A stretch of DNA of 64,000 bases from Patescibacteria group bacterium. GTDB lineage: Bacteria; Patescibacteriota; Patescibacteriia; GWA2-46-9. This document shows positions 40,869-56,823 of this stretch, piece by piece. Below the pieces are notes generated by a model. It saw only the letters and a list, made by a program, of their open reading frames with translations, was not told the DNA's origin and made no database searches. Position numbers and translations under genes: made by a program. The stretch is from positions 68,568 through 132,567 of the forward strand of contig JBAYUF010000002.1 of NCBI GenBank assembly GCA_041675205.1, read 5' to 3'. Each line of letters starts with the position of its first letter. Within the stretch, counting starts at the first letter, position 1.

Positions 40869-42362
40869 TTACACCTTCTTGAATAACCCGAACAGTTGCC
40901 GTGAACGATTTAATTCAAGCTTAATGCGTTCTCTGGCCGTTCTTGTTTTAACGAATTGCAGCCAGTCTGGTGACGGGCGAGCTCGCTTTTTGTCGATGAC
41001 AATATCAACCATATCACCAGACTTAAGTGGCGTTGAAAGGGGCATCAGCTTGTTATTAATACGCGCCGCGACACAGTGGTTACCAATGTCTGAGTGAATG
41101 TGATAGGCAAAGTCTACGGGTGTGGCTTGATCGGGGAGTGCAATGACGTCTCCGCCGGGAGTGAAGACAAAAATATTTTCAGGGAAGACATCAATTTTTA
41201 AGTGCTCGAGATACTCGGTGGTGTCGCGAATTTCTTTCTGCAATTTTACGAGCTCTGTTACCCATGCGTACCGTGGGCTGTTCATTTTTATGCCTTCCTT
41301 AGGCTTACCTTGTTCGGTGTAGTACCAGTGTGCGGCTGGGCCGTAGTGTGATTCTTCATCCATGGCTTTGGTGCGAATTTGGAATTCAACGATTTCGCCA
41401 GGGCCAACGAACACGGTCGTGTGCAGCGATTGATAACCGTTTGGCTTCGGTTGGGCGATGTAGTCTTTAATACGGCCACGGAGCGGCTTCCAGAGTTGGT
41501 GAATGATGCCAAGGACGGCGTAACATTCGGTAACGTTTTCAACAATCACGCGTACGGCTACGAGGTCATAAATTTTTGAGATATCACGGTCGTGGCGCAG
41601 CAGTTTTTTATAAAGACTGTACAGAAACTTGGCACGCCCTTCGATGTCGAGCACCGTGATAGTTTGGTTTTCATCAAGTTTATCGCGCAGTAGTGCCATT
41701 ACTTTTGCCAAGTTCTTTTCTTTACTTGGCGAGGTTGTGGCCATGAGCTGCGATACCCAGGCGTACGATTCTTGGTCGGTGTATTTGAACGACAGGTCTT
41801 CTAGTTGACCTTTAATTTCCCACATGCCGAGGCGATGCGCGATGGGGGCGAATATTTCCATACTTTCGAGCGCAATGCGCTGGCGTTTTTCTGGCGCTAA
41901 GGCGTCGAGCGTTTCCAGGTTGTGCAATCGGTCCGCGAATTTAATGAGAACGACCCGAACGTCTTTTGAAATGGCTAAAAACATTTTTCGCAGGTTTTCC
42001 ACGTAACGCTCCATGCCTCGGTACTTGAGCGTGCCGAGTTTTGTGATGCCTTCCACCAGCGCCGCCACATCAACGCCAAAATTTTCTCGAATGTCTGGCA
42101 CGGTGTATGAGGTATCTTCAGGAACATCGTGCAACAATCCGGCGATAACCGTGTTCAAATCGACTCGCATGGTGGAGAGCTTGTTCGCAACTGCCAAGGC
42201 GTGCGTGATGTAGGGTTCGCCGTTGGTGCGCTTTTGGCCCTGATGTGCCTGGTCGGCAAATTCATAAGCCAGACGAACCATATCAAGATCAGCTCCGGGA
42301 AATTGTGCTGCGAGTCGTTTGAGAAGTTGCGTGAGTACTTGGGGCTCCTTTGGCTTCTCCAT
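40869..42362 (-). CDS. short RelA/SpoT-family (p)ppGpp synthetase/hydrolase (HD + synthetase + TGS; no ACT domain)
   Basis: HD motif (LLHDVPED), synthetase domain, C-terminal TGS. Start taken at MEKPKEP. Confidence 0.8.
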   Translation of the reverse strand: MEKPKEPQVLTQLLKRLAAQFPGADLDMVRLAYEFADQAHQGQKRTNGEPYITHALAVANKLSTMRVDLNTVIAGLLHDVPEDTSYTVPDIRENFGVDVAALVEGITKLGTLKYRGMERYVENLRKMFLAISKDVRVVLIKFADRLHNLETLDALAPEKRQRIALESMEIFAPIAHRLGMWEIKGQLEDLSFKYTDQESYAWVSQLMATTSPSKEKNLAKVMALLRDKLDENQTITVLDIEGRAKFLYSLYKKLLRHDRDISKIYDLVAVRVIVENVTECYAVLGIIHQLWKPLRGRIKDYIAQPKPNGYQSLHTTVFVGPGEIVEFQIRTKAMDEESHYGPAAHWYYTEQGKPKEGIKMNSPRYAWVTELVKLQKEIRDTTEYLEHLKIDVFPENIFVFTPGGDVIALPDQATPVDFAYHIHSDIGNHCVAARINNKLMPLSTPLKSGDMVDIVIDKKRARPSPDWLQFVKTRTARERIKLELNRSRQLFGLFKKV

Positions 42363-42373
42363 AAAGGTTATTT

Positions 42374-44590
42374 CTACGTTTCCGATTGCATGCCGATATA
42401 GCCGCAACCCTTCATAGAGCAGCGTACCGCGCCTTTGGCTGCGAAGACAAGCAGTGAGCCGCAGGTTGGGCATTTCTCGCCGGTTGGTTTAGACCATAGC
42501 GCAAATGAGCAGGCCGGGTAGGTGTTGCAGGCAAAAAAGTTTCGCCCACGCTTCGAGCGTTTTTCAACGAGGTCACCCTTACCGCAGCCAGGACATGGTA
42601 CCCCGGTGGATTTCACGATTGGTTTAATTTTTTTGCATTCTGGATAGCCGGTGCAACCAAGGAAGGTACCAAATCGCCCACGTTTAACGGCCATGGGCTT
42701 GCCACATAATTCACATGGTTCTGCCGCAAATGTTTCTGCTGCCACCGCTTCGTCGCTCCCCGCTAGCGGCTTTGTGGTGCGACATTCCGGGTATCCGGTG
42801 CAGGCCAGGAACCGACCAAAGCGACCGAACTTTACCACCATCGGTTTACCGCAGGTGGCGCAGACTTGGTCACTGGCTTCTTGGGTTATGCTCTCTTTAC
42901 TGATTTCAGCATCTTTTACTATAAGGTGCTCTTTGAATGGGGTGTAGAAAGCACGCAGCACGGGCACGAGCTGTTTTTCACCCTCAGCAATTTCATCGAG
43001 CTCGCGTTCCAGCGTGGCGGTGAACTCAAAGTCAATGATTTCTGGGAAGTGTTCAACTAAAAGGTCATTTACCAATTCAGCGAGTTCGGTGGGATACAGC
43101 CGTCGTTCTTTTTTTTCAACGTAACCGCGGTCTGTAATGGTGCTAATGGTTGGGGCGTAGGTTGATGGTCGGCCGATGCCATGTTCTTCAAGCGATTTAA
43201 TGAGCGTAGCGTCTGAGAAGCGAGCGGGGGGTTCGGTGAAGTGTTGCGTGCCGCCAACTTTTTGTAGCATTGCCGTTGCTCCAACAGTAACGTCCGGCAA
43301 GTCGACGTCGTTTGCATCGTTATAGTAGACCTTGCGCCAACCATCAAAAGAAAGAACTGAGCCACTCGCACGGAGTGTATAGTCGGGAGCTTGCACGGTC
43401 GCCACGTCAATTGTGGTAGTGCGAACAATTGCCTCCGGCATTTGCGAAGCTATGGCCCGTCGCCAGATGAGTTCGTAGAGCTTCTTTTGTTTCGGGTCGA
43501 GGTACTCTGCCACTGACTCTGGAGTGCGAAGCGCGCTTGATGGGCGAATGGCTTCGTGTGCCTCTTGGGCGTTTTTGGAACGTGATTTAAATCGACGCGG
43601 CTCTGTTGCGTACTCTTTGCCGTAGGTTTCCAGAAGGTACGTCTGTGCTTCAGTTAAAAATTTCTCTGACAGGTTCATTGAATCGGTTCTCATATACGTA
43701 ATGAGACCGACGGCACCTTCGTCACCAATGGTTACCCCCTCGTACAGTTGCTGCGCCACCATCATGGTTTGCTTCGGACTCATATTGAGGCGACGGCTAG
43801 CCTCTTGCTGCAGAATAGATGTGGTGAAAGGCGGGGGTGGTGTTTTCTTCGCTTCGCGGCCGTTTACGTCCGCAATTTTGTAGCTGGCTTTTTCAAGATC
43901 AGCGACAATTGCATCGGCCGCCGATATTCCGGGTAGGGCAAATTTATCGAGCCGCTCACCATTACGGGTGAACAGTGCGGCAGTTATAGTGCCAGTGGGT
44001 ACGGTAAAGTCAGCTTCAATCGTCCAGTACTCTTCAGCATTGAAGGCTCGTATTTCTCGTTCTCGTTCCACAACCATTCGTACGGCGACCGATTGTACAC
44101 GACCGGCTGAGAGACCTCGATAAATTTTTCGCCATAGAAATGGAGAGAGTTCGTAGCCAACTAATCTGTCGAGCATTCGTCGCGCCTGTTGGGAGTCGAC
44201 CATTCGCTCGTCAATGGTGCGTGGGTGCTCAAGCGCTTCAGCAATCGCTTCGTCAGTAATTTCATGAAAAGCGATACGTTGTGAGTTTTCGTTGGTGAGG
44301 CCAAGTGCTTCTTTGAGGTGCCAGGCAATAGCTTCCCCTTCACGGTCTTCATCAGTTGCCAGAATGACCATGTCAGCCTTTTTGGCCTTGAGCTTTAAAG
44401 CAGTCAGATTTTTCTTCGCTTTCAAAGGCACGACGTACTGCGGTGCGAAATCGTTCTCTATATCGATACCCATTTTCGACTTCGGCAAGTCGCGGATGTG
44501 GCCATAGGAAGACATGACAGAAAATTTCTTGCCAAGGAACTTCTGAATGGTTTTGGCTTTTGTTGGCGATTCAACGATGACGAGTTTCAT
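42374..44590 (-). CDS. topA: DNA topoisomerase I
   Basis: TOPRIM plus active-site Tyr region, with multiple C-terminal C4 zinc ribbons. Confidence 0.9.
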   Translation of the reverse strand: MKLVIVESPTKAKTIQKFLGKKFSVMSSYGHIRDLPKSKMGIDIENDFAPQYVVPLKAKKNLTALKLKAKKADMVILATDEDREGEAIAWHLKEALGLTNENSQRIAFHEITDEAIAEALEHPRTIDERMVDSQQARRMLDRLVGYELSPFLWRKIYRGLSAGRVQSVAVRMVVEREREIRAFNAEEYWTIEADFTVPTGTITAALFTRNGERLDKFALPGISAADAIVADLEKASYKIADVNGREAKKTPPPPFTTSILQQEASRRLNMSPKQTMMVAQQLYEGVTIGDEGAVGLITYMRTDSMNLSEKFLTEAQTYLLETYGKEYATEPRRFKSRSKNAQEAHEAIRPSSALRTPESVAEYLDPKQKKLYELIWRRAIASQMPEAIVRTTTIDVATVQAPDYTLRASGSVLSFDGWRKVYYNDANDVDLPDVTVGATAMLQKVGGTQHFTEPPARFSDATLIKSLEEHGIGRPSTYAPTISTITDRGYVEKKERRLYPTELAELVNDLLVEHFPEIIDFEFTATLERELDEIAEGEKQLVPVLRAFYTPFKEHLIVKDAEISKESITQEASDQVCATCGKPMVVKFGRFGRFLACTGYPECRTTKPLAGSDEAVAAETFAAEPCELCGKPMAVKRGRFGTFLGCTGYPECKKIKPIVKSTGVPCPGCGKGDLVEKRSKRGRNFFACNTYPACSFALWSKPTGEKCPTCGSLLVFAAKGAVRCSMKGCGYIGMQSET

Positions 44591-44731
44591 AATAGGCAGA
44601 AGCGTACTCGAGGGTTCTGTAGGGTGTCAACCTTAGTGGTCATTTCGATAACATCAGAATGTTTAAAAAGCCAGTAGGCCCGTTACCTTAATTAACATTC
44701 AAAATTTTTTGAATGTATTGAATATTGGGTA

Positions 44732-44761
44732 TCCCGCCATTTTAGGCGGGACATCTTTTTT
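44732..44761 (+). terminator. plus-strand terminator-like hairpin with T6, in the intergenic region between two minus-strand genes
   Basis: TCCCGCC-ATTTTA-GGCGGGA then CATCTTTTTT. Flanked by palindromes CATTCAAAATTTTTTGAATG and CATTCCTG-TTTAG-CAGGAATG. Confidence 0.45.
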
Positions 44762-44883
44762 CATTCCTGTTTAGCAGGAATGCATAGATTATTAGTAGTG
44801 CCGCTAGCAAGCGGCGCAGCAGCGGGGCAACACTTCGACTCGCTCCGCTCGCTCAGTGTAAATAGTTTAATTTGTTTGGATTC

Positions 44884-45981
44884 TTACAATTTTATATATC
44901 GTTTCCCGCCCACATCTCGCACGAGGCCAGAAAGCTCAAGCGAGAGGAGTTCAGTGGCGAGTATTGTTGTTGATAATGAACATCGTGCCGCTAGGTCATC
45001 GAAGTATATTGGTTCGTGGGAAAGTGCCGCCATTATGTTTGTCGCGGTTGCGCTCAGTTGTTGATTGAGTTTTTTTGTTGGCGCTACTCTCGGTTCTAAC
45101 CCTAATGCAACGAAAACGTCTTGCGCGCCAGTAATCACGTGCGCTCCGTCGTGTAGTAGCGCGTTGCAGCCGGCGGCGTTTTCTTCGGTGATGCGCCCAG
45201 GGATGGCTAAAATTTCACGGTTATAGTCGAGAGCCAAACGAGCGGTGATGAGGGCACCGCTTTTCAGTGGTGCTTCGATGACCAATGTTCCAAGGCTTAG
45301 ACCGGCTATGATGCGATTGCGTTCCGGGAAATGATGTTGACTCGGCCCAACGCCGGGTGGGTACTCGCTCATAAGGAGGCCACCGGATTCGACAATTTTC
45401 GTTGCCAGTTGACGATGTTCTGGTGGGTAGATATCTGATTCTGCAATGGAACTACCGAGCACAGCAATAGTTCGGCCGCCAACTTCAAGTGTCGCCTCAT
45501 GCACGATTGCGTCTATGCCACGCGCCAGACCGCTCACCGTTGTTAGCTCATTTTTTGCCAGCGCTTGCGTTAGATGAAGCGCGGCTACCTTTCCGTACTC
45601 AGTCATTTTACGTGTTCCGACTATTGCGATTGTCGGTTCGACAGGTTTGTTCAGGGGGAGTACACCACGGTAAAAAAATAGGTGTGGTGCGTCGGGTATT
45701 TCTTTTAGGAGTGCGGGGTAGGTACTATCTGTCTTGATGACAAATTCTATGTTTTCGCGACGCAGTTTCTCTTGTGTTGTTGTAGAATCGTTGGTTGTAC
45801 GATAGGTAAAAAATTTCTCAATTGTTTCATGCTCAAAGTTCAGGCCGCGCAATGTTTCACGCGATGCACGCCAAGCTGCTTCACCGCTCGGCAGATACCT
45901 GGCCAGCTTTCTTATTTGTATAGGCGCCAAAACGAAGCTGAGTGCCAGCCAAAAATCTCTATCTTGCGTTTCAGTGGCCAT
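44884..45981 (-). CDS. dprA: DNA-processing protein DprA
   Basis: Rossmann-like DprA core (GLARGIDAIVHEA...IAVLGSS). Confidence 0.85.
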   Translation of the reverse strand: MATETQDRDFWLALSFVLAPIQIRKLARYLPSGEAAWRASRETLRGLNFEHETIEKFFTYRTTNDSTTTQEKLRRENIEFVIKTDSTYPALLKEIPDAPHLFFYRGVLPLNKPVEPTIAIVGTRKMTEYGKVAALHLTQALAKNELTTVSGLARGIDAIVHEATLEVGGRTIAVLGSSIAESDIYPPEHRQLATKIVESGGLLMSEYPPGVGPSQHHFPERNRIIAGLSLGTLVIEAPLKSGALITARLALDYNREILAIPGRITEENAAGCNALLHDGAHVITGAQDVFVALGLEPRVAPTKKLNQQLSATATNIMAALSHEPIYFDDLAARCSLSTTILATELLSLELSGLVRDVGGKRYIKL

Positions 45982-46000
45982 TTCTTAATACTATAAGGGT

Positions 46001-46234
46001 ATGTCTTGCATTAAGTGCGGAACACATCTTCATCCAGACGAACATGGTGATTGCCGTGAGTGCGGTGCTGCGTACGACGAGGTAAATAAAGAGGTTCGGA
46101 TTTCAGGACAGCGGCAAGGAGAGACGGAAGGCAGCGGAGGTGCGCAAGAGGAAGCATTGCGAGAAGAGGATAGTAGTGAGAAACAGCTTAATTTTTTTGG
46201 TAGAGAAAATAGACGAAGTCGACGAGCGGCGTAG
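46001..46234 (+). CDS. small zinc-ribbon protein
   Basis: CIKCGTHL...CRECG, followed by a charged tail. Confidence 0.35.
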   Translation: MSCIKCGTHLHPDEHGDCRECGAAYDEVNKEVRISGQRQGETEGSGGAQEEALREEDSSEKQLNFFGRENRRSRRAA

Positions 46235-46257
46235 CCTTTATGTAAAAATTTTAGCAC

Positions 46258-46288
46258 GGCTGCTTCCTTGACAGGAAGCCTTTTTCTT
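46258..46288 (+). terminator. rho-independent terminator
   Basis: GGCTGCTTCC-TTGACA-GGAAGCC then TTTTTCTT. Confidence 0.7.
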
Positions 46289-46299
46289 GTTAAGGTGCC

Positions 46300-46516
46300 G
46301 CGTCGAGTACGGGTAGTAATGCGCTACTGCACTCGAAATGAAATAACATTTCCGGGGTTCTTATCTGGGAGCGACGAACGAACCACTACCCCTCCTAAGT
46401 GGGACAAGTAGTCAGCGAGTAGTGTGGTTAAGGTAACTACCAAACACCCCACTCGCTCCCAGGTAAGAGGTTCGGAAAATAAACAGCACCGACGTACGTC
46501 GGTGCTGTTTTGTTGT
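46300..46516 (+). ncRNA. candidate small structured RNA with its own terminator
   Basis: Nested long-range pairings CTGGGAGCGA...CACTCGCTCCCAG and AACCACTAC...GTAGTGTGGTT. Ends in the perfect hairpin CAGCACCGACG-TA-CGTCGGTGCTG plus TTTTGTTGTTT. No ORF longer than 60 aa. Confidence 0.35.
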
Positions 46517-46978
46517 TTGAGTTATTTTTTCTTGCACTTAAGGCTCGCTTTTTAGATAAGATTTTTATTACTCTTTTGCTTGCTTAAAAGAATAGAGACC
46601 AGTCCGCCGTAGGCCGATCCGCCTTTGGCGGAAAAATGGCACCCTCGCTTCGGCAGCTACGCGGTTTCTCGCAAAAGTTGCAGCACAGCCATAAACTTCC
46701 CTTCGCACACGCTCAGGGTCGAACAGTATGGCTGTTTCTCGCTGCAACTTTTCCTTAACCGCTGGGCTGCCTTTGCTATGGGGTTCGTGGGAGTCATATA
46801 AAAACTTTTTGAAAAGGGAGCGCCGCGGGTACGCTCCAGGTCGGTTGACCGGAAAACGTACCCGCGGCGGGTGCCATGTCAGGGTTGGATTCCCTGTTGA
46901 CACGAGTCAGCGATGCTGACGTTGTTGAAGAAATTCAGATGTGCGAAGCGACTGGAAGCCGCCCCGCTTGGTTCGGGT

Positions 46979-47446
46979 TCAGGCCTTCTTGTGGCTGTGG
47001 CCGCCTTTGTCGAGGATGCTGGCGGCTTCGTAGTTGTGCGAGTTGTTGTCGGTGCCGACCTTGGTGTCGATTCCGATGGATCCCTCCTTGTTGCGCACGA
47101 GCGCCGGGGAAATCGTCTTCTCGGTCTTCAGGATCGCGTTGGCGGTGCCGGTGCCGACCTTGGTGCTGGTCGAAAGCGCGGTGCCCTCCATGGCGTCAGC
47201 GATGTCGGCACGATGAGCCGTCAGCGCAATCGCAGGATCGTCGGCGGCGATGGCCGAGGTGAGGGCCGGCATCGTGGTCGTCTTGCCGGTGCCGTTCGGA
47301 ATGATGGCCGTGCCGGTGTTCCCGACGTCGACGGGAGCGGCGGCGATGGCCTGCAGAGCGGGGTTGCCAGCCGTAGCAGCCGGCGGCGACGAATACACCA
47401 GGAGTGCGGCGAGGAGGGCGAACCCTCCGTAACGGATCAACTTCAT
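46979..47446 (-). CDS. secreted Ala/Thr/Gly-rich low-complexity protein, high GC
   Basis: AAGGAG ribosome-binding site. Signal peptide MKLIRYGGFALLAALLVYSSPPAATA. Confidence 0.45.
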   Translation of the reverse strand: MKLIRYGGFALLAALLVYSSPPAATAGNPALQAIAAAPVDVGNTGTAIIPNGTGKTTTMPALTSAIAADDPAIALTAHRADIADAMEGTALSTSTKVGTGTANAILKTEKTISPALVRNKEGSIGIDTKVGTDNNSHNYEAASILDKGGHSHKKA

Positions 47447-47721
47447 GATGGAACTCCTTCTATTGTCTTCCGATTGTCATTGAACGTTTCGCCTTCAAGC
47501 TAGTTTCTCGAGGGAATCCCGAGCCTATATCTAGTATCTTGAGTGGCATCCCAAGTCTAGCTTCTTTTCTTGAAGACTTCCCGAATGGGCAACGATATAA
47601 TATAATTTTTTCCTTTTTTGTCAACAAATTTTCCGCAGTTTTAAATATCTAGGATTGACCTTTTGCCCTTCTTTTGCTTTACTATGCGGTCGCTTCAACC
47701 GTAGAATTTGTTTGCGACTAC

Positions 47722-47754
47722 TGACGAAACGTCGGTACATCAACCAAGGAGGGC
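47722..47754 (+). promoter_or_regulatory. conserved 5' element, copy 1 (hairpin GACG-AAA-CGTC + GGTACATCAACCAAGGAGG)
   Basis: Shares about 28 nt, with identical spacing to the start codon, with copy 2 at 47911-47940. Confidence 0.5.
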
Positions 47755-47758
47755 TATC

Positions 47759-47887
47759 GTGAACCGTCGCCGTGCACTCATACTCGTTCTTTTCGTCGCC
47801 GGGGTCGTGGCTCTTTTCGACAGCTACTCTGGCGCGTTCAAGGTTAACGCGGCAGGAAACTGCCGCGGGTATTCACTCAGCCGTTAG
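47759..47887 (+). CDS. candidate 42-aa secreted/membrane peptide (GTG start)
   Basis: AAGGAGG ribosome-binding site. VNRRRALILVLFVAGVVALF... Below the 60-aa cutoff of the ORF track. Confidence 0.3.
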   Translation: MNRRRALILVLFVAGVVALFDSYSGAFKVNAAGNCRGYSLSR

Positions 47888-47910
47888 GAGGTTTTTCGTT
47901 TCAACCCAAC

Positions 47911-47940
47911 CGACGGAACGTCGGTAGACAACTTAGGAGG
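47911..47940 (+). promoter_or_regulatory. conserved 5' element, copy 2 (hairpin CGACG-GAA-CGTCG + GTAGACAACTTAGGAGG)
   Basis: See copy 1. Confidence 0.5.
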
Positions 47941-47947
47941 AAGTCCA

Positions 47948-48397
47948 ATGAACGTTCGTTCCATTTTTGCCCTGGCTCTTACGGCGGTTGGTGTGATCGC
48001 CATCCTCCACAGTGACGCCGGAAAGTGGGCAGCGCCCGCGAAGCCGGTCGTTGCTGAAGCGGACTGCCCGGGCAGCACCCATGCTGTTCGGCACCACCAC
48101 CGCGAGGCCGAGGAGTACATCCTCGGCGGCGACGTTGTTCGGGCCATTCACGAGATCCAGCTGGCTTCGTTGTTCTCGTGTGACGTCAGCCCTGGCATCA
48201 GACACCTTCAGGTGCTGGCCTGGAACAGCCTCGCTCAGGCTCATTTCCAGCAGGGAGCTTGGCCGGACAATGGTCATGCACAGCAGGCGCTCGAGGAGAT
48301 TCGGCATGCGCAGCGACTTCTTACGATGGTGGCCGACCACGAATCTTCGTGGCCCCATTCGATGATCATCGACCACGAATCTTCGTTGCCACATTAG
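47948..48397 (+). CDS. secreted His-rich protein, high GC
   Basis: Signal peptide MNVRSIFALALTAVGVIAILHS. HAVRHHH and a repeated DHESS(W/L)PH C-terminus. Confidence 0.45.
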   Translation: MNVRSIFALALTAVGVIAILHSDAGKWAAPAKPVVAEADCPGSTHAVRHHHREAEEYILGGDVVRAIHEIQLASLFSCDVSPGIRHLQVLAWNSLAQAHFQQGAWPDNGHAQQALEEIRHAQRLLTMVADHESSWPHSMIIDHESSLPH

Positions 48398-48567
48398 CCC
48401 GTGCCCACCGGCCGCTCTCAATCTCGAGGGCGGCCGATACTTCTTTATATAAACTATTGACTTTGTGGCAGTTTTCAGCTAAATTATCGTGTTCGATTCC
48501 GGCTCGCACTCTAACAATAACTGCAGACAACCGCTCTGACATACGTTCAGGGCAAAGGAGACGCTAG

Positions 48568-49680
48568 ATGCGTCAGTTCTTCGTTCGTTTCCTTGGCGCC
48601 ATCTTGGCGTCCATCACCATGACCCTCGCTCCTGCGCCGGCTTCGGCTGGAGCGGGGAGTCAGATCGCATTGCTGTCCGAGTTTTGCCTCTACCCCGATT
48701 GCGGGGCGAGGCTTGCCTACACCTCTCATGAGTGGGGGTGGGCCAATCCGGCCACCCTCACCGAAACATTCGATCTCGGCCTCGACGACTGGGCGTCGGT
48801 CGGTGGTGCCTACTTCTACGGAAGCACCATCTACTCCGGTACGATCACCGCTGGCTTCAAGCCGGTGGTCGTGCAGCTCAACTACGTCAACGCCGCTGTT
48901 GACGGTGAGCTGCCCTCGAGCGACCTCGACCTTGCGTTCGAAACGTCACGCTGGCGGCTGTCGTTGGCGTGGGACCTGGCGTCCGTCGGCATCGATGGCT
49001 TGTCCATCGGCGTCATCGGCGTCCTGCCTGGAAGCGAGAATAAGGTTGGGATTTCAACCGAGATTCCTGACTTCGGCGACCTCGACCTCGTGAAGGCTCA
49101 CGAGGAACCCGGTTGGGACTTTACTCTCGGGATGCTCTACGAGATGGGCGAGCGCGATTGGCTGCGTTTTGGTGCGACGTTGAACGTCGCATCTTACGAC
49201 AGCAGCGTTGACGCGCTCGACCTCGACAGCGGTGAGGTCTACCGGACCAACTCCACGTCGAACCTCTGGTTCGGCCGGCTGGGTGCGACGGTACATCCGT
49301 TCGTGCCCATGGGCCTTGCCAGTGGTGAGTCCTCGTGGGACGAGTGGCTGCGCAAGGTGGAGATTTCAGCCGACCTTCGTGTCGTGAATATTTCCATCTC
49401 GGGCGAAGATACCATTCGCCCGATCGACGCCTTCTTCGGCGTCGATGTTCCCTTGCTCCCGAGGCATTGGAACCCGCTGGCGAAGTATGTTGAACTCGTC
49501 GGTGTCAGTGGCGTCGGGACCGATGGTAGCTGGGGCGCAGGCCTCGGCATCTACGGTCAAGGGCCGCTTCGGTGGCTGACCTGCGACACTATGTACTCTT
49601 CCCAGCCCGGGGGTGACCTCGGGAAGGATTTCACGCTGAGCGGCATCGGCTGCACAGCATCAATGCCGCTGCCTTTCTAG
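48568..49680 (+). CDS. secreted OMP-like beta-barrel candidate ending in Phe
   Basis: Signal peptide ...LAPAPASA. Alternating Gly/aromatic pattern. C-terminus ...ASMPLPF. Own TTGACT-17-TAAATT promoter. Confidence 0.4.
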   Translation: MRQFFVRFLGAILASITMTLAPAPASAGAGSQIALLSEFCLYPDCGARLAYTSHEWGWANPATLTETFDLGLDDWASVGGAYFYGSTIYSGTITAGFKPVVVQLNYVNAAVDGELPSSDLDLAFETSRWRLSLAWDLASVGIDGLSIGVIGVLPGSENKVGISTEIPDFGDLDLVKAHEEPGWDFTLGMLYEMGERDWLRFGATLNVASYDSSVDALDLDSGEVYRTNSTSNLWFGRLGATVHPFVPMGLASGESSWDEWLRKVEISADLRVVNISISGEDTIRPIDAFFGVDVPLLPRHWNPLAKYVELVGVSGVGTDGSWGAGLGIYGQGPLRWLTCDTMYSSQPGGDLGKDFTLSGIGCTASMPLPF

Positions 49681-49716
49681 GAGGACTGGCAGCGCCCATT
49701 TCGTTTGGAGGGAAAG

Positions 49717-49748
49717 GGGCTTCGTGAACACACGAAGCTCTTTTTCTA
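49717..49748 (+). terminator. rho-independent terminator after the OMP-like gene
   Basis: GGGGCTTCGTG-AACA-CACGAAGCTC then TTTTTCTATT. Confidence 0.75.
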
Positions 49749-49777
49749 TTGAAAAGTTCAGGAAAATGTGCTATAAT
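49749..49777 (+). promoter_or_regulatory. consensus sigma70 promoter giving a (near-)leaderless decarboxylase mRNA
   Basis: TTGAAA, 17-nt spacer, TATAAT. The ATG lies 6 nt after the -10. Confidence 0.6.
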
Positions 49778-49782
49778 TCACT

Positions 49783-50976
49783 ATGAAATTTACAATTTCG
49801 CCTGTTTATATGGCAAAAACAAAAGAGCTTGGACTGGCGCCACTCATAGCAAAAAGCGAAACGCGGGAAACACCCGCGTTCTGGTTCAGTAAGCGGCAAG
49901 TGGCGGCGAACTATCAACGGTTCCGCCGCGGTCTGCCAAACGTGAAGATTTTTTTCACATTAAAATCAAATGCCGTTCCGGCTGTGGTGCACGTTTTAGT
50001 TCAAGAGGGTGCTCATTTTGACGTGGCGTCACTGGGTGAAATTCGACTTCTCAGAAAATTAAAGGTAAGCCCAGAGCGGATGTTTTTTACGACGCCAGTA
50101 AAAATTCCGGCGGAGATTCGGGCAGCGTACCGCATTGGCGTCCGCCATTTTGTGGCAGATTCGATGATGGAAATTTCGAAGTTGGCTCGCTACGCACCAG
50201 GCAGCAATGTCTTCATTCGATTCCGCACCAGCAACAAAGGTAGTCAGTGGCCGTTGTCGCGACGATTTGGTGCTGAGACGTCACAAGTGTTGGGGTTGCT
50301 GCAATTTACTGTAGAGCAACGGTTGGTACCATATGGCTTGGCATTTCATGTTGGGTCGCAATGTTCAAACGTACAGAACTGGCAACAGGGTATACGCCGA
50401 GCGGCAGCTCTGGTGAATACGTTCAAACAGAAAAGTGGCTACGACCTCAAGGTTATTGATATTGGTGGTGGTTTCCCTGTGTGCTACACGAAAGATGTGC
50501 CATCGCTTGAGACAATTTTCAGTGCCATTCAGCAAAGTGTGAAACGGTATTTGCCTGGTTTAGAAATTTGGGCAGAGCCGGGACGAGCAATGGTGGCTGA
50601 CACTGGTTTCGCGGTGACGACGGTCATTGGTCGTACTAAGCGAGGGCGGGACAATTGGTTATTCTGTGACCTCGGTGCGTTCAACGGGCTACTAGAATTA
50701 ATTGAGCCAAGTTCGCGAGGGTTTGCGTATGAAATTTATGCACCAGTGAATAAGGTGAATGGGAGTGCCAAGCGAGTGAGTAACGGTAACGGCAAGAAAA
50801 AAATGTTTACTCTCACCGGCCCATCGTGTGATGGTGATGACATTATTATAGAGCACGTAAACCTAGCCGATATTGGTGTGGGGGACAGAATCTACCTTTT
50901 GAAAACAGGCGCGTATAGCATTATGTATGCCTCGAAATTTTGCGGAAATAAGCAGCCCAAGGTGCACGTTGTGTAG
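49783..50976 (+). CDS. fold-type III PLP decarboxylase (Orn/DAP/Arg decarboxylase family)
   Basis: FFTLKSN (PLP-Lys region), HVGSQ, GGGFP, GPSCDGDD. Confidence 0.7.
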   Translation: MKFTISPVYMAKTKELGLAPLIAKSETRETPAFWFSKRQVAANYQRFRRGLPNVKIFFTLKSNAVPAVVHVLVQEGAHFDVASLGEIRLLRKLKVSPERMFFTTPVKIPAEIRAAYRIGVRHFVADSMMEISKLARYAPGSNVFIRFRTSNKGSQWPLSRRFGAETSQVLGLLQFTVEQRLVPYGLAFHVGSQCSNVQNWQQGIRRAAALVNTFKQKSGYDLKVIDIGGGFPVCYTKDVPSLETIFSAIQQSVKRYLPGLEIWAEPGRAMVADTGFAVTTVIGRTKRGRDNWLFCDLGAFNGLLELIEPSSRGFAYEIYAPVNKVNGSAKRVSNGNGKKKMFTLTGPSCDGDDIIIEHVNLADIGVGDRIYLLKTGAYSIMYASKFCGNKQPKVHVV

Positions 50977-51083
50977 GCTGCGTTGACAGCGCTCACAAAA
51001 AGGACTATGGTAAGCAGCCGTTTTTGAAACACGGCAATTCACAACAAAGACCCCGTGCGAGCGCATTGGGAGGAGGTAGACAG

Positions 51084-51698
51084 ATGGCAGAGCATGAAGC
51101 GGTTCAGCCTTTCATCGCCGATTCGTTGGAGGAGCTGACCGCAGTGCGGCTGCTCCTCTACGAAATCGGCACCGACGAAATGCATTGGCCGGAGGAGGAG
51201 GTGATACCAATCCTTCGTTGGCCGCAACAGATCTTGGTCGGCGTTCGGGCTGCGGGTGAACTCGTGGCAGCGGGGCAGATTCTCGTTGCCCCGCGACCGT
51301 TCCCGGTCGAATCGTTCGAGCCGGGCTGTATCACCCACAGTGCCCGACCGGTCGAGGTGAGCCTCGTTGGTATCGAGCGTGCGTACCGCCGGAAAGCCCA
51401 GGACGGCGCAATGGCGGTGCTCGACGCTTTGGTGAAGGCAATTTACTGGGGTTGCCACAGCGTCGGATTTACCGACATCTGGGCGCTGTATGAACCCACC
51501 CGGATTTTGATTTTCGACCAAATTGCCGGCATTCCGGTGGTGGTCGAAACCGTCGGGCAGCACTACTGGTGCAGCCGCGAAGTGCACACACCGGACTGCC
51601 CGCTCACGTACGGGTGTCGGATGAACCGGCTTCGCGGCGAGGCCAACTGGCTGGCCTCACGGCCGGAGTTCTACGCTTACGTCATGGCGGGGATGTAG
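51084..51698 (+). CDS. hypothetical protein, high GC (possible acyltransferase-like fold)
   Basis: GGAGGAGG ribosome-binding site. Start taken at MAEHEAV. IERAYRRKAQDGAMAVLDALV weakly resembles a GNAT motif A. Confidence 0.3.
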   Translation: MAEHEAVQPFIADSLEELTAVRLLLYEIGTDEMHWPEEEVIPILRWPQQILVGVRAAGELVAAGQILVAPRPFPVESFEPGCITHSARPVEVSLVGIERAYRRKAQDGAMAVLDALVKAIYWGCHSVGFTDIWALYEPTRILIFDQIAGIPVVVETVGQHYWCSREVHTPDCPLTYGCRMNRLRGEANWLASRPEFYAYVMAGM

Positions 51699-51756
51699 GC
51701 GAGGAGAAGTGTGATAAACTGGTGGGGAGGTTGCGAAGAATACGCGACCTCCCCAC

Positions 51757-53427
51757 TTGACGATTATGAACGTGTACTTCATTGCCACTCTTGTTCTTAT
51801 CGTGCTCGAAACACTCATCGGGCTCATTGTTTATTTGCACGATTCGAAGCAGCGTACGAATCGTCTGTTTCTCTCATTAACACTCGCAATCGTATTGTGG
51901 ACAGTCGCAAACTATTTAGCTGATGTTTTCAGTTCTCACTTTTGGGCCGAGACAGCATATCTTGGAGCGCTCCTGATTTTTTATACATTGTTCCTTTTTG
52001 TTGAGGCTTTTCCTCAGCCAACGGGCATTATCTCAAAAGGAGTTCAGTTAGTGTTACTTGCCCTCACTGCATTACTCGGCGTCATTATTTACCTTCCCCA
52101 GGGATTCATCGTGGCAGCGGTGATTCCGCGCAGTGGCGGCATTGATGTACAAACCGGTGTCTTATTCCCAATTTTAGCCTCCTACTTCATTACCTTATTT
52201 TCTGTCGTTTGCATTTTTCTTTTTCAAAAGCTTAGACATAGCGAGAGCTTAGAGCGAATTCAGTTGCAGTACCTCACGTTTGGTCTGTTGGCCGGACTTA
52301 TTATTGGTATCGGTGGAAATTTAATTATTCCGCTCGTCAGTGGTGATTTTTTATCGAGTCGGTATGGTCCATGGGGGGTTATTATTTTTTTACTCCTCAC
52401 CACGTTCGCCATTGTTCGTTACAACTTACTTAATATTACAGTAATTGCGACGGAGGTATTTGTTGTACTCTTGTTGCTCATCTTGCTTGGGCAGGTATTC
52501 TTGGCCGATGGCGATATTCAGCTTGCTGGAAACATTACCGTACTGGTGCTGGCGTCAGTACTCGCCTACTTCCTTATTCGAAGTATGCTTCGGGAAGTGA
52601 AGCAGCGGCAAATACTTACCAGGCTAACGACACAGCTCGAAGATGCTAACCAGCAATTGAAAGTGCTTGACGAAGCGAAGTCAGAATTTGTTTCTATCGC
52701 GTCGCACCAATTGCGCACACCACTCACGGTTATTAAGGGATACGTTTCAATGCTTTCTGAGGGCTCGTTTGGCAAAATTCCGAATAAGCAAGAAGATCCA
52801 ATCAGAAAAATTTATGAATCAGCCAATCGGCTGATTGAACTGGTTGAAAATTTACTGTCTATTTCTCGCATTGAATCGGGTCGCATGAAGTACAATATGG
52901 CACCAACCAAGCTTGAAGAACTAGCAGCTTCCGCCACAGAGGAATTGCAGACGGCAGCCGGCAACAAGAAATTGAAGTTGGTGTTCGAGCAACCAAGAGA
53001 AGCGTTACCAGTGTTACCACTTGATGGTGAGAAGTTGCGTCAGGTGATGATGAACTTAATAGATAATGCGGTGAAGTACACACCGAAAGGGTCGGTTACC
53101 GTACGGGTTGAAGTGGTTCGCAACAAACGACCGCCGTACATTGCTGTGCCAAGCATCATGTTTTCCGTAACAGACACCGGTGCAGGACTTGCCCCAGAAG
53201 ATCAGAAACGTTTGTTTCAGAAGTTTAACCGAGCGGATGGCAATAACCTCAATACCCGTGGCACTGGCCTTGGCCTCTACGTCGGAAGAATGATGGTTGA
53301 AGCACACCACGGTGTTATTTGGGTGACGAGCCCAGGCGTGAACAAGGGCAGCACCTTCGCTTTTGCCGTGCCGCTTCCTAGTGTGACGGATGAAGCCATC
53401 CTTGCCTTGAAGGATATGGTTCGCTAG
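51757..53427 (+). CDS. sensor histidine kinase with N-terminal polytopic membrane domain
   Basis: H-box ASHQLRTPLTVIKGY. HATPase region with TGAGL and G-box GTGLGL. Confidence 0.8.
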   Translation: MTIMNVYFIATLVLIVLETLIGLIVYLHDSKQRTNRLFLSLTLAIVLWTVANYLADVFSSHFWAETAYLGALLIFYTLFLFVEAFPQPTGIISKGVQLVLLALTALLGVIIYLPQGFIVAAVIPRSGGIDVQTGVLFPILASYFITLFSVVCIFLFQKLRHSESLERIQLQYLTFGLLAGLIIGIGGNLIIPLVSGDFLSSRYGPWGVIIFLLLTTFAIVRYNLLNITVIATEVFVVLLLLILLGQVFLADGDIQLAGNITVLVLASVLAYFLIRSMLREVKQRQILTRLTTQLEDANQQLKVLDEAKSEFVSIASHQLRTPLTVIKGYVSMLSEGSFGKIPNKQEDPIRKIYESANRLIELVENLLSISRIESGRMKYNMAPTKLEELAASATEELQTAAGNKKLKLVFEQPREALPVLPLDGEKLRQVMMNLIDNAVKYTPKGSVTVRVEVVRNKRPPYIAVPSIMFSVTDTGAGLAPEDQKRLFQKFNRADGNNLNTRGTGLGLYVGRMMVEAHHGVIWVTSPGVNKGSTFAFAVPLPSVTDEAILALKDMVR

Positions 53428-53432
53428 GCTTA

Positions 53433-54218
53433 GTGCAGACAACTATGGCAGAGGCAAAGAAAAAAGTGCTTATCATTGAAGACGAGGCATTCCTCGCCGA
53501 GATGTACCACACGAAGTTTAAAGAGTTGGGGTACCAGGTTTTTGTTGCACCTGACGGCAAGCAGGGAATTGCGGTGATGCATAAAGAAAAACCGGATCTC
53601 ACTTTGCTCGATATCATCATGCCAGACCTCGATGGCTATGAGGTTTTAAAAGTAGTGCGGCAGGATGCAGACTTGAAAGACTTGTTGATTGTCGTCCTTT
53701 CGAACCTGGGACAAGACGAAGAGATTACAAAAGGCATGCAGCTCGGTGCCGACGACTACTTGGTAAAGTCTGACCTTACGCCGAGTCAATTGGTAGAGAA
53801 AATTGAAACGGTATTGGCTCGTGGCCGCACAGCGAGTGCTGCGGTGCAGCAAGTGCGGGTGCTCCTCATTGAAGATACGCGGGACATTGTTGAATTGTAT
53901 CGTCATCGATTTGAGAAAGAAGGATTTATTTGTACCGTGGCGGAAAATGGTGCCTGGGGAGTGAAGACTGCTCAGACCCAACCATTTGATCTCATACTTC
54001 TCGACATAGCTATGCCAGCCATGAACGGGCTTGAAGCACTGGCCACGTTGCGAGCCACGCCGAAACTGGAGAAGACGCCAATCATTGTTTTTTCGAACAC
54101 TGTCGAATCAGATGAGTTGAGTGATGTAAAAAAAGCCGGGGCAACGGAAGTGTTTCTAAAAGCGCGAGTAACCCCAACGCAGATTGTGAACAAGATTCGT
54201 GAACTAATCGCTCGATAG
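53433..54218 (+). CDS. response regulator with two tandem receiver domains and no output domain
   Basis: Two REC units: LLDIIMPDLDG ... VVLSN and LLDIAMPAMNG ... IVFSN. Confidence 0.75.
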   Translation: MQTTMAEAKKKVLIIEDEAFLAEMYHTKFKELGYQVFVAPDGKQGIAVMHKEKPDLTLLDIIMPDLDGYEVLKVVRQDADLKDLLIVVLSNLGQDEEITKGMQLGADDYLVKSDLTPSQLVEKIETVLARGRTASAAVQQVRVLLIEDTRDIVELYRHRFEKEGFICTVAENGAWGVKTAQTQPFDLILLDIAMPAMNGLEALATLRATPKLEKTPIIVFSNTVESDELSDVKKAGATEVFLKARVTPTQIVNKIRELIAR

Positions 54219-54259
54219 GAAACAACATTGACCAGCGATATTGTAAGGGCTAAGATTCG

Positions 54260-54283
54260 CGCATCGTTTTGATGCGTTTTTTG
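54260..54283 (+). terminator. rho-independent terminator after the HK/RR pair
   Basis: CGCATC-GTTTT-GATGCG followed by TTTTTTG. Confidence 0.75.
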
Positions 54284-54313
54284 TTTTGAGCCATCGGAAG
54301 GAGGGTAGAGGTC

Positions 54314-54616
54314 ATGGAAAGAACCTTAGAAAGTATTGGGGTTGAGATCGACGAGATCGATGCCTTGTTCGTGCGTCTGCTCGCCTTACGATTTCGGTTG
54401 GCACTTGAAGCCGGCGAGATCAAGCGTGCTGCTGGATTGCCAATTGTGCGTCCGGCCGTGGAGCAGGCGAGGATTGCAGCAGTGACGAAGTTGGCAGAGG
54501 CGCAGGGGCTGCCGGATGATTTCGTTCGGGAGCTGATGGAGAAGATCGTTTTTCGTTGTCGGACGGCACAAAAACTACCACCACCTACGCGAACAGGGTG
54601 GGCCGCCTGCAGCTAA
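54314..54616 (+). CDS. AroQ-class chorismate mutase
   Basis: IDEIDALFVRLLALRFRLALEAGEIK. Confidence 0.55.
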   Translation: MERTLESIGVEIDEIDALFVRLLALRFRLALEAGEIKRAAGLPIVRPAVEQARIAAVTKLAEAQGLPDDFVRELMEKIVFRCRTAQKLPPPTRTGWAACS

Positions 54617-54627
54617 GATGTTCGACG

Positions 54628-54660
54628 GCGAGGGGGCTGATCGAAATCAACCCCCTCGCG
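54628..54660 (+). terminator. hairpin terminator after the chorismate mutase gene
   Basis: GCGAGGGGG-14 nt-CCCCCTCGC. A T-run follows 12 nt later. Confidence 0.5.
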
Positions 54661-54662
54661 CC

Positions 54663-54705
54663 TTGCTAGATTTTTTATTGTTAAATACAATGTACTAGTA
54701 CATTG
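54663..54705 (+). promoter_or_regulatory. promoter (TTGCTA-17-TACAAT) overlapped by the 18-bp perfect palindrome CAATGTACTAGTACATTG (TrpR-type operator)
   Basis: Palindrome at 54688-54705 overlaps the -10 and the predicted transcription start of the trpR-like gene. Confidence 0.55.
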
Positions 54706-54755
54706 ATATGGGGAACGTAACAAAAAAGTACATTAGTGAAGTTGAGGAAGTAGTT

Positions 54756-55001
54756 ATGCGCGCGGCGCGGTCGCCGGAGTTGCTGCATGAGTTTTTGCGT
54801 GACGTATTAACCCCAGCCGAACTTGATGAAGTGGCCTTGCGTTGGCAGATTGTAAAGCGTCTGGCGGCTGGTGCGTCGCACCGCGACATTGCCGAAGAGC
54901 TTGGTGTGGGGGTGGCTACCATTGCTCGGGGTGCCAGAGAATTAACAAACCCGACCGGCGGTTTTTGGCGCCTGCTGCAACGACCGACCGAACGTTCTTG
55001 A
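54756..55001 (+). CDS. trpR: TrpR/YerC-family repressor
   Basis: VLTPAELDEVALRWQIVKRLAAGASHRDIAEELGVGVATIARGARELT aligns to the TrpR HTH (...ELGAGIATITRGSN...). Start taken at MRAARS, which has a GAGGAAG ribosome-binding site; the alternative start is 54708. Confidence 0.7.
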   Translation: MRAARSPELLHEFLRDVLTPAELDEVALRWQIVKRLAAGASHRDIAEELGVGVATIARGARELTNPTGGFWRLLQRPTERS

Positions 55002-55029
55002 CACCACATCTCTTTCTGCTATAGTTCAC

Positions 55030-55041
55030 TGTACTAGTACA
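55030..55041 (+). promoter_or_regulatory. second TGTACTAGTACA operator, upstream of the trp leader
   Basis: Exact 12-bp core within the imperfect palindrome CACTGTACTAGTACACTG. Confidence 0.55.
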
Positions 55042-55058
55042 CTGAAACAAAGAAAAGT

Positions 55059-55127
55059 ATGATTTCTATACACATTGAAGCAAACGCTCGTTGGTGGTCC
55101 GTTCTCTATCTCAGAGGGCGAGCCTAG
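55059..55127 (+). CDS. trpL: trp leader peptide, 22 aa, with tandem Trp codons
   Basis: ATG ATT TCT ATA CAC ATT GAA GCA AAC GCT CGT TGG TGG TCC ... TAG translates to MISIHIEANARWWSVLYLRGRA. Confidence 0.5.
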   Translation: MISIHIEANARWWSVLYLRGRA

Positions 55128-55150
55128 ATTGTTATTGTTAATAATAGTTT

Positions 55151-55180
55151 TGGCCCGCTCTCTGGAGCGGGCGTTTTGTT
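55151..55180 (+). terminator. trp attenuator terminator
   Basis: GCCCGCTC-TCTGG-GAGCGGGC then GTTTTGTTTT, about 70 nt upstream of trpE. GAGGGCGAGCC (55113-55123) could form the alternative antiterminator pairing. Confidence 0.6.
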
Positions 55181-55251
55181 TTGGGTAGCGAGCCGGAATG
55201 AACCTTTGACAACAAAAACCTTTTGAAAAGAAAAGGAATAGGGAGAACGAC

Positions 55252-56823
55252 ATGAAAAACGGTGAAGCACTGAATCGTGAAATGGGTGAGGGGATGGAAA
55301 GCTGTTGGAATGGAGCATGGCGTGTGATTGATGATTACGCGGCGAATGTGCTCGATGATTTCCAGCGCATGGCTGCTGTGGGTGGTAGGCACCTGGTGCC
55401 GGTCGTTATTGGGTTGCCAAGTGACAACGTAACACCGGTAGCGGTGTATCAATCCGTCCGTCGAGCCACCACCCCAACAGTATTTCTTGAAAGTGTGCCG
55501 CAGGGGCAGCACTTGGGGGATTACACCATCGTTGGTTGTCGGATGAGCGCCCGTTTCACCGTGCGAGGTGAACGGTCGGCATTGAAACCACGGCTGGGTC
55601 GGGTGGAAATTGCCGAGGGAATGGCTCTCGAGCATCTGGAAGCGTTTTTGCAGTCAACAACACCACTGCAGCAACCTGGTCGAGCACCATTTCTTGGTGG
55701 TGCAATCGGCTACGTTGGTTTTGAGGGTGTATGCCTCATTGAACCAACGGTGTCACGGCACAGCGTGAACAAACTGGATTGGCCAGAGATTGATCTCGTC
55801 GCGTTCGACGAAGTAATCGTCTTTGACCATGCCCGTCAGCTTGTTTACCTCGTCGCTTTGGCTGAGTTCAACGGCAGCGAAAATGTAGCGGCGGCGCATC
55901 GGGATGCGTACGAACGTGCCGGTCGACTGATCCGTCATCTGCAAAAACCAATCGAGCCGCTCACCAAGCTGACCGGCGTGGATGGTAAGATTTCGAGCAA
56001 CATGACTCGGGACGTCTACGAGCGGATGATCGAAACCGGGAAACGGTATATCACCAGCGGTGATGTATTTCAGATAGTGCTGTCGCAGCGGTTCAGTGTT
56101 GGTTTTTCTGGTGATTCATTCGACTTCTACCGACACCTGCGTCGTATGAATCCATCACCGTATATGTTTCACCTTGAGCTTAGCGACGGGCGAGTGCTTA
56201 CTGGTGCGTCGCCCGAGGTTATGGTGAAAGTCAGTGGTGATGTCGTGCACATTCGACCAATTGCTGGAACCAGACGGCGGAGCATCGATGCGGTGGAAGA
56301 CGAGCGCCTGCGGCAGGAGCTGGCGGCAGATCCAAAGGAGCGGGCCGAGCACAGCATGTTGGTTGATTTGGCGCGAAATGATGTTGGCCGAGTGACAGTG
56401 ACGGGGAGTGTAGTCGTCAGCGGAGTGATGCGGGTAGAGAAATACAGCACGGTGCAGCATCTGGTGAGCGACGTGAGCGGACGACTGCACGAAGCTATTA
56501 CTCCGTTTCGGGCGTTTCTCACCTGCTTGCCGGCTGGTACGCTCTCCGGTGCGCCTAAGATTCGCGCCTGTCAATTGCTGGTTGAACTTGAGCCGTGTGC
56601 TCGTGGGCCATATGGCGGCGCTGTTGGTTGGTTCACCTCATACGGTCTTGATACGGGCATAGCGATTCGAACGGCGTGGGTAGATTCCGGAACTATGTAC
56701 TGGCAAGCAGGGGGAGGCGTAGTTGCCGACTCAACACCTGCCGGTGAGTACGAGGAGTCGCTAACGAAAGCAAGATCAATTGGCAACGTGCTCAAGCATG
56801 CAACGGGAGGTACTGGACGATGA
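55252..56823 (+). CDS. trpE: anthranilate synthase component I
   Basis: 523 aa chorismate-binding enzyme (LSQRF ... GAPK ... GGAVG). Confidence 0.9.
   Translation: MKNGEALNREMGEGMESCWNGAWRVIDDYAANVLDDFQRMAAVGGRHLVPVVIGLPSDNVTPVAVYQSVRRATTPTVFLESVPQGQHLGDYTIVGCRMSARFTVRGERSALKPRLGRVEIAEGMALEHLEAFLQSTTPLQQPGRAPFLGGAIGYVGFEGVCLIEPTVSRHSVNKLDWPEIDLVAFDEVIVFDHARQLVYLVALAEFNGSENVAAAHRDAYERAGRLIRHLQKPIEPLTKLTGVDGKISSNMTRDVYERMIETGKRYITSGDVFQIVLSQRFSVGFSGDSFDFYRHLRRMNPSPYMFHLELSDGRVLTGASPEVMVKVSGDVVHIRPIAGTRRRSIDAVEDERLRQELAADPKERAEHSMLVDLARNDVGRVTVTGSVVVSGVMRVEKYSTVQHLVSDVSGRLHEAITPFRAFLTCLPAGTLSGAPKIRACQLLVELEPCARGPYGGAVGWFTSYGLDTGIAIRTAWVDSGTMYWQAGGGVVADSTPAGEYEESLTKARSIGNVLKHATGGTGR

Follow-up and report, generated by a model that had tools for sequence, protein, structure and literature searches.

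FadL-type transmembrane β-barrels count as a hallmark of diderm outer membranes, and their assembly depends on the β-barrel assembly machinery (BAM). The described proteins that resemble the one treated here are the E. coli channel FadL, which serves long-chain fatty acids, TodX and CymD, which serve monoaromatic hydrocarbons (all family Toluene_X), the FadL-like barrels PorV and BamG of Bacteroidota (6h3i_F, 9n2d_B, 9hj3_F), which belong to the translocon of the type IX secretion system (T9SS) or to the extended BAM, and the monomeric 14-stranded porin OmpG. No report of FadL-like or porin-like barrels in Patescibacteria was found in the literature. These bacteria, also known as the candidate phyla radiation (CPR), are placed in a monoderm clade in which porins were lost (10.1101/2021.05.31.446380) and are taken to be without an outer membrane (10.1101/2021.05.31.446380; 10.1101/2025.01.22.634366). 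The DNA analysed here is a stretch of 64,000 nt from a Patescibacteria group bacterium (assembly GCA_041675205.1, contig JBAYUF010000002.1, positions 68,568 to 132,567), called the window below; all coordinates are positions within it. At 46979–49750 it carries an island of four open reading frames (ORFs; A, B, C and D), of which gene D encodes a protein with a predicted FadL-like fold. The occurrence of D in Patescibacteria is unexpected. The island is probably a recently acquired accessory cassette with a new channel of the FadL superfamily, which would have come from a high-GC diderm lineage and have been acquired and used in a CPR genome.

Base composition was followed in 300-nt windows. 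GC content amounted to 58–68% across the coding parts of 46800–49650 and to ~50% on both flanks, in agreement with the initial annotation, which had been made from the sequence alone and had described a high-GC island; the intergenic promoter regions of the island are AT-rich (GC 0.43–0.45). The same picture was obtained when the GC content at third codon positions (GC3) was compared with that of the other genes (0.65–0.85 against 0.50±0.08). The individual values were 0.846 for A, 0.651 for B, 0.693 for C, and 0.757 for D, against a mean of 0.500 with a standard deviation (sd) of 0.079 for the remaining 52 genes of the window, and thus lie 2–4 sd above the window mean. Because the excess is found at third codon positions, amino-acid composition does not explain it. 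The island is located between dprA and an ornithine-decarboxylase-like gene of the CPR genome. Three contigs, each 100% identical to the window, cover this arrangement: L024 (Logan; 41161–47713) joins A with dprA and topA, L001 (Logan; 47687–57563) joins B, C and D with the decarboxylase, a kinase and trp genes, and L025 (46798–48334; Joint Genome Institute (JGI) metagenome 3300037067, landfill leachate well LW3) bridges A, B and C. Jointly they span 41161–57563, with both island–backbone junctions included. Both Logan contigs end at 47687–47713, in an AT-rich spacer within the island and away from its boundaries with the backbone.

The part of the island that encodes the predicted barrel comprises the following features:

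48457..48485, plus strand: promoter of D, TTGACT-17-TAAATT with upstream TTTATATAAAC, 9/12 matches
48568..49680, plus strand: gene D, 370-aa precursor with a signal peptide (cleavage guessed at ASA/G, after residue 27) and the C-terminus ...MPLPF
49713..49750, plus strand: intrinsic terminator after D, hairpin at 49713–49744 with a 17-bp stem and T-run, −24.9 kcal/mol, z = −5.3

The N-terminus of D (MRQFFVRFLGAILASITMTLAPAPASA/G, the slash marking the cleavage site) was read manually as a Sec-type signal peptide with cleavage. The C-terminus (...GIGCTASMPLPF; ...CTASMPLPF) has hydrophobic residues at alternating positions and the final Phe that had been noticed initially in the ending ...LPF; F or W is the final residue in 11/18 members of the D family. 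D itself was without a match in Pfam (E≤0.1), NCBIfam, PHROGs, and PADLOC. The family is small: seven proteins were found among 5.8 billion, and a profile search yielded 26 clusters among 1.84 billion representatives. AlphaFold2 run with seven sequences gave a predicted local distance difference test score (pLDDT) of 56; this run was superseded by one with 18 family members, in which pLDDT rose to 85.1 (82.5–85.1 for the five models) with a predicted template modelling score (pTM) of 0.78. The model contains short helices in residues 28–72 and long antiparallel strands in residues 74–364, and corresponds in prediction to the 14-stranded antiparallel transmembrane β-barrel of the FadL/TodX family. 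With DSSP, one long strand of the better model was found to be broken (145–152 and 157–166), a break that is not to be equated with the S3 kink of FadL. When the model was compared with known barrels, the listed values were 26.0 for TodX, 24.9 for a BAM-associated outer-membrane protein of B. thetaiotaomicron, 24.8 for FadL, 24.0 for the FadL homologue of P. aeruginosa, 23.3 for PorV, 21.8 for BamG, and 18.3 for OmpG.

Likeness to FadL, TodX and CymD lies in the predicted barrel fold and in the aromatic C-terminus. The position of an NPA motif may be a further point of likeness; in D the motif is formed by N60-P61-A62 (mature residues 33–35 if the precursor is cleaved after A27) and in E. coli FadL by N33-P34-A35; at this position the family has the motif N-[PA]-[AG], with N in 14/17 members. 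The differences are that sequence homology to these proteins is not detectable, that D is ~60–80 residues shorter than FadL, that its host is a presumed monoderm, and that FadL lacks the two Cys pairs conserved in the D subfamily, whose four invariant residues are found in CLYxDC (CxxxxC) of the N-terminal domain and as C339 and C362. PorV and BamG share 7–11% sequence identity with D, and T9SS or BAM genes were not found near D in any locus examined. OmpG lacks an N-terminal hatch, whereas D has ~45 extra N-terminal residues with conserved motifs. Since homology to FadL could not be demonstrated from sequence, D is filed as a new sequence family with a predicted FadL/TodX/PorV fold and not as a member of Toluene_X.

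The relatives of D were examined for their genomic context. The clade nearest to it (P0003–P0007 and L026; 42–45% identity) is encoded on contigs of 64–66% GC, one of them labelled Deltaproteobacteria. Wherever upstream sequence is present, the order is pstS-pstC-pstA-pstB-phoU-D homologue, the latter directly adjoining, with a Porin_5 gene upstream of pstS, and DUF523/DUF1722 and PlsC-type acyltransferase genes downstream. In GC3, the pst-linked D homologue (0.79) does not differ from its neighbours (0.78–0.85), and the gene is therefore native in these contigs. One further pst-phoU-linked locus was obtained by a metagenome scan with the 7-sequence D alignment. A conserved protein of 96–113 aa follows the D homologue in part of the pst-linked clade (L006 3647–3937, L007 1807–2097, and L009 2771–3112); it has two hydrophobic segments, is without a Pfam match, is unlike A, B and C, and could be a partner within the native system.

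In a neighbour-joining tree, D of the window and P0002 are sister to the pst-linked clade. P0002 is 65% identical to D and lies on L008, a 1.5-kb contig of 61% GC, on which the 3′ end of a C-like gene is followed by the same terminator stem and then by a nearly invariant D promoter (TTTATATAAAC-n-TTGACT-17-TAAATT). As the C-like gene, the terminator stem, and the promoter are all kept, C and D appear to travel together. The D promoter is, to judge from this sequence comparison, under constraint, being almost invariant on L008, where only 65% amino-acid identity is left in the flanking coding sequence. At other loci, the small ORFs beside D-family genes bear no similarity to A, B or C. In a side observation, a high-GC D-family gene on L019 (6928–9128) was found directly after a gene of the arginase/agmatinase family, and D of the window stands directly before a gene of the ornithine/arginine-decarboxylase family; these shared polyamine-metabolism neighbours may be coincidence.

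More distantly related members of the D family, again with elevated GC3, recur in further loci of lower GC. On L020, GC3 is 0.63 for the D-family gene and 0.62–0.69 for two adjacent small ORFs, against ~0.50 for the flanks, and genes for Gmad2 and T4SS_pilin (PF18895) are nearby; PF18895 is one pilin profile that has been used in surveying Patescibacteria (10.1101/2025.01.22.634366). On L021, the value is 0.51 against flanks of 0.35, and the gene adjoins S12-S7-EF-G. On L028, which has its own promoter and terminators at this gene, it is 0.84 against 0.62–0.69. To judge from its genes, L028 is from a relative of the window organism: the two share the same gene order, with identities of 65% for SHMT, 55% for PMM, and 42% for inositol monophosphatase (Inositol_P). 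With 33% identity to D, the D-family gene of L028 falls into a different subfamily, and its locus is not that of D in the window. Homologous α/β-hydrolase genes (29% identity, E = 9e-28) were found upstream of the D-family genes on L028 (571–1305) and L022 (760–1530), which represent two different subfamilies; such neighbours may indicate a functional link of an esterase or lipase with the channel.

Host identity was assessed from the backbone. Proteins of the 187-kb contig carry the NCBI label "Patescibacteria group bacterium"; those encoded in the window are filed under MFA7286352–MFA7286387. When DprA was compared with 185,579 species representatives, none exceeded 44% identity, and the only CPR match, a metagenome-assembled genome (MAG) of Ca. 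Sungiibacteriota (L010), was top-ranked with 41%. L010 and the window share the order dprA-topA-relA/spoT, with SHMT further on, at 41–54% amino-acid identity; upstream of dprA this distant relative (41–54% identity) has pyrF and an unrelated 162-aa ORF instead of the island. About 55 genes of the 64-kb window were scanned with Pfam (RecA, FtsK, PNPase, LspA, EF-P, SSB, S6, S15, MurD, SHMT, UvrBC, etc.); they serve housekeeping and metabolism, and no family of outer-membrane biogenesis was found among them. The initial remark that a barrel of outer-membrane type would be anomalous in a monoderm host is supported by the Patescibacteria label, by the synteny with Ca. Sungiibacteriota, and by the literature on CPR without an outer membrane, with outer-membrane genes scanned for in 64 kb. 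Amino-acid biosynthesis genes are uncommon in Patescibacteria; at 53433–57404, genes for chorismate mutase, a Trp-repressor-like protein, and anthranilate synthase components I and II are grouped in the CPR backbone.

Upstream of D, the island contains the following features:

46979..47446, minus strand: gene A, 155 aa, Ala/Thr/Gly-rich, with a signal-peptide-like N-terminus (cleavage guessed at ATA/G), ORFan
47597..47624, minus strand: sigma-70-like promoter of A, TTGACA-16-TATTAT, 11/12 matches
47678..47707, plus strand: weaker promoter-like site before B and C, TTTACT-18-TAGAAT, 9/12 matches
47720..47737, plus strand: leader motif, copy 1, ACTGACGAAACGTCGGTA, a short hairpin that ends 22 nt before the B start codon
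47759..47887, plus strand: candidate gene B, 42 aa, GTG start, hydrophobic N-terminus followed by a 16-aa tail
47909..47926, plus strand: leader motif, copy 2, ACCGACGGAACGTCGGTA, which ends 22 nt before the C start codon
47948..48397, plus strand: gene C, 149 aa, predicted secreted, His-rich (14 His/149 residues, manual count)
48324..48395, plus strand: 36-nt tandem duplication, source of the DHESSWPH/DHESSLPH repeat at the C-terminus of C; the copy on L008 does not have it
48409..48436, plus strand: terminator-like hairpin after C, −23.9 kcal/mol, z = −4.8, with T-run; stem identical in L008

All four ORFs have the Shine–Dalgarno sites and signal-peptide-like N-termini that had been ascribed to the genes of this region. 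The Shine–Dalgarno sequences are AGAAGGAG for A, AAGGAGG for B, TAGGAGG for C, and AAGGAG for D, 6–8 nt upstream. The signal peptides of A–D were read by hand: the N-termini contain 1–3 basic residues and a hydrophobic core (maximum 11-residue Kyte–Doolittle value 2.1–3.4), with the small-x-small sites ATA/G, SGA/F, SDA/G, and ASA/G, respectively. The promoter-like sites before A, B/C and D, together with the hairpin and T-run after D, likewise accord with the island having its own promoters and a clean terminator. A is the only long ORF of its region with the GC excess on third codon positions. An 18-nt leader hairpin motif (ACNGACGNAACGTCGGTA) is common to B and C and has three matches in 64 kb against 0.07 expected, and the two regions align without gaps over the leader, the start codon, and the hydrophobic N-terminus; for both reasons candidate gene B appears to have arisen by partial duplication of the 5′ end of C. 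The 42-aa peptide proposed initially has a Shine–Dalgarno site, a GC3 of 0.651, and a hydrophobic N-terminus, and remains a candidate gene only; it is without a family match in Pfam and NCBIfam. The repeated DHESS-PH motif of the His-rich protein was recovered as DHESSxPH and originates from the 36-nt duplication.

A homology search of the island proteins, which had been proposed initially as a check, returned the D family, whereas A and C returned only themselves, apart from the fragment of a C-like gene on L008. The sole match of A among 5.8 billion proteins is A itself, and Pfam, NCBIfam, PDB, PHROG, and PADLOC gave none. C is likewise without a homologue among the 5.8 billion proteins beyond itself and the L008 fragment, and without a match in Pfam, NCBIfam, PHROG, PADLOC, or the PDB sequences. 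To the 3′ end of the C-like gene upstream of the D homologue on L008, residues 80–133 of C are 56% identical over 54 aa; this conserved part reads like a helical repeat. Matches of the island proteins to phage or defence families were not found in PHROGs and PADLOC, and a scan of viral contigs yielded no relatives of D. A real tRNA at the island borders was found neither with ARAGORN nor with Rfam. The "tRNA-Asn" that ARAGORN reported within the coding sequence of D (48861–48956, plus strand, 96 nt) is without support from the Rfam tRNA model and almost certainly a false positive.

Beside A, a region of ~560 nt (46349–46910) lies between a zinc-ribbon ORF with its terminator and the stop codon of A; it is without a convincing ORF and has dense nested hairpins, including perfect stems of 13 bp and 12 bp. 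Positions 46560–46910 fold at −156 kcal/mol (z = −7.3 for the plus strand and −8.8 for the minus strand). No Rfam family was matched across 46349–46910, apart from a sub-threshold match to a terminator-like leader, and the region is unique in the window. It may be a structured RNA of a new kind or a long structured 3′ untranslated region of A that ends at the bidirectional terminator 46481–46510.

Further genes with high GC3 were noted elsewhere in the window at 9185–9640 (minus strand, 0.75), 20272–21576 (minus strand, 0.69), 27861–28793 (plus strand, 0.64), 29408–30001 (plus strand, 0.63), and 51024–51698 (plus strand, 0.72). One of these five encodes an EamA-like membrane protein, another has a weak match to Peptidase_M15, a third encodes a PfkB kinase, and two were assigned to no family; between the island and the 224-aa ORFan at 51024–51698 there is only the decarboxylase gene, which looks native. 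Several foreign insertions appear to make the genome a mosaic. Next to tRNA-Arg (6949–7025), at 38 kb from the island, lies a gene for a phage-integrase/XerC-type tyrosine recombinase (7836–8828, minus strand), and no link between this gene and the island was found. The listed ORFs of relA/spoT (40869–42473, minus strand) and topA (42374–44590, minus strand) overlap by 100 nt, and translation of relA probably begins at a codon further downstream.

From the foreign cassette, the barrel prediction, the native high-GC relatives linked to pst, and the repeated foreign-looking copies, we infer horizontal acquisition of the island from a high-GC diderm lineage. The initial impression of horizontal acquisition is in line with the GC3 excess, with nearest homologues that are native in contigs of 64–66% GC, and with the absence of the island at the syntenic site of a distant relative. 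Like horizontally acquired genomic islets, the island has an atypical GC3, its own promoters and terminators, and a patchy distribution, and is absent from the syntenic site of a distant relative; it differs from them in being without an integrase (the nearest integrase-family gene is 38 kb off), a tRNA target, and flanking repeats. The cassette would have been inserted between dprA and the ornithine-decarboxylase-like gene. The precursor of D would be exported by Sec and its signal peptide removed, and the mature protein would hold an N-terminal "hatch" (NPA, CxxxxC) inside or below a β-barrel of the 14-stranded type with an aromatic C-terminus. By analogy with FadL and TodX, D would be an outer-membrane channel for the passive uptake of hydrophobic or amphipathic molecules, gated by the N-terminal hatch, and would probably be used under phosphate limitation. 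Linkage to pst-phoU, together with the acyltransferase and α/β-hydrolase neighbours, invites the speculation that the substrate is lipid-like or phosphate-related. We think that D-family genes have been captured repeatedly and are used rather than carried as dead cargo, because the expression signals are intact, the D promoter appears constrained, and foreign-looking copies occur in at least three other lower-GC loci.

Several findings weigh against a FadL-like channel acquired and used by a CPR bacterium. Support for the fold of D is sequence-based prediction. In a pairwise alignment of the N-termini of D and E. coli FadL, 305/2000 shuffles scored equally well, so that the likeness is not significant; Toluene_X (PF03349) was not matched at E≤1 by any of the 18 family members; a profile search of PDB with the D family gave no relevant barrel match; and when the family profile was aligned with E. 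coli FadL by hhalign, the probability was 0.2%. A test for alternating hydropathy on the predicted strands was not significant either (541/2000 shuffles), but is regarded as uninformative, since these strands include extramembrane parts. On the genomic side, neither a mobility gene nor a flanking direct repeat was found to mark the island, the absence of outer-membrane and BAM genes in this organism refers to the 64-kb window, and the CPR identity of L020 and L021 was derived from neighbour genes only. The unameliorated GC3 is equally compatible with a very recent and possibly neutral acquisition.

This last point leads to the explanation that competes most closely with a cassette in use, namely dead cargo: a very recent transfer from a diderm neighbour or host that is as yet undegraded and functionless, as a BAM-dependent barrel could not assemble. 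A GC3 that has not ameliorated at all, the lack of homologues of A, B and C elsewhere, and the description of CPR as lacking an outer membrane, with no outer-membrane genes in the 64-kb window, speak for such a passenger. It is nevertheless held to be somewhat unlikely, since four ORFs with their Shine–Dalgarno sites, promoters, and terminators are all intact, and since full-length foreign-looking members occur at three further lower-GC loci, including that of a relative at a different site; with only 26 clusters in the family, recurrence at three loci is difficult to explain by accident alone. Considerable weight is still given to the passenger hypothesis beside acquisition and use. That the host is no monoderm at all, the lineage (or a mislabelled contig) having an outer membrane in which D is an ordinary channel, is very unlikely. 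It could appeal to the coverage of 64 kb of genome, to a taxonomic label that is the submitter's, and to backbone biosynthetic genes unusual for CPR (anthranilate synthase, chorismate mutase), but against it stand the synteny of the backbone with a Ca. Sungiibacteriota MAG, the lack of outer-membrane biogenesis families among the ~55 genes scanned, and the foreign composition of D, which is hence not part of a core envelope. Hardly any credence is given to an assembly or binning artefact, in which a fragment of a high-GC diderm would have been joined to a CPR contig: the abrupt change in GC and the fact that both Logan contigs end within the island (47687–47713) would suit it, yet L024, L001 and L025 link the island genes to the backbone on both sides with 100% identity, and the contig break falls in an AT-rich intergenic region within the island and not at its boundary with the backbone.

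Whichever its fate in this genome, the D family is a previously unannotated and very rare protein family with a predicted FadL-like fold, and its native linkage to pst-phoU suggests that the response to phosphate starvation has an outer-membrane component not yet characterised. An intact D gene in CPR would mean either that an envelope layer of these cells holds barrels, or that the protein is deployed in the membranes of their hosts, or that small genomes tolerate useless foreign DNA to a greater extent than has been assumed. CPR are generally considered to take up lipids and other hydrophobic molecules from outside rather than to make them. They might repeatedly capture FadL-type barrels from diderm bacteria and use them at the symbiont–host interface, for instance by exporting them into the outer membrane of the host or into an outer layer of the epibiont that has gone unrecognised, in order to draw off lipids or hydrophobic compounds, a proposal that is regarded as rather improbable. 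If it were true, a barrel of the outer-membrane type would serve a cell without an outer membrane or BAM of its own.

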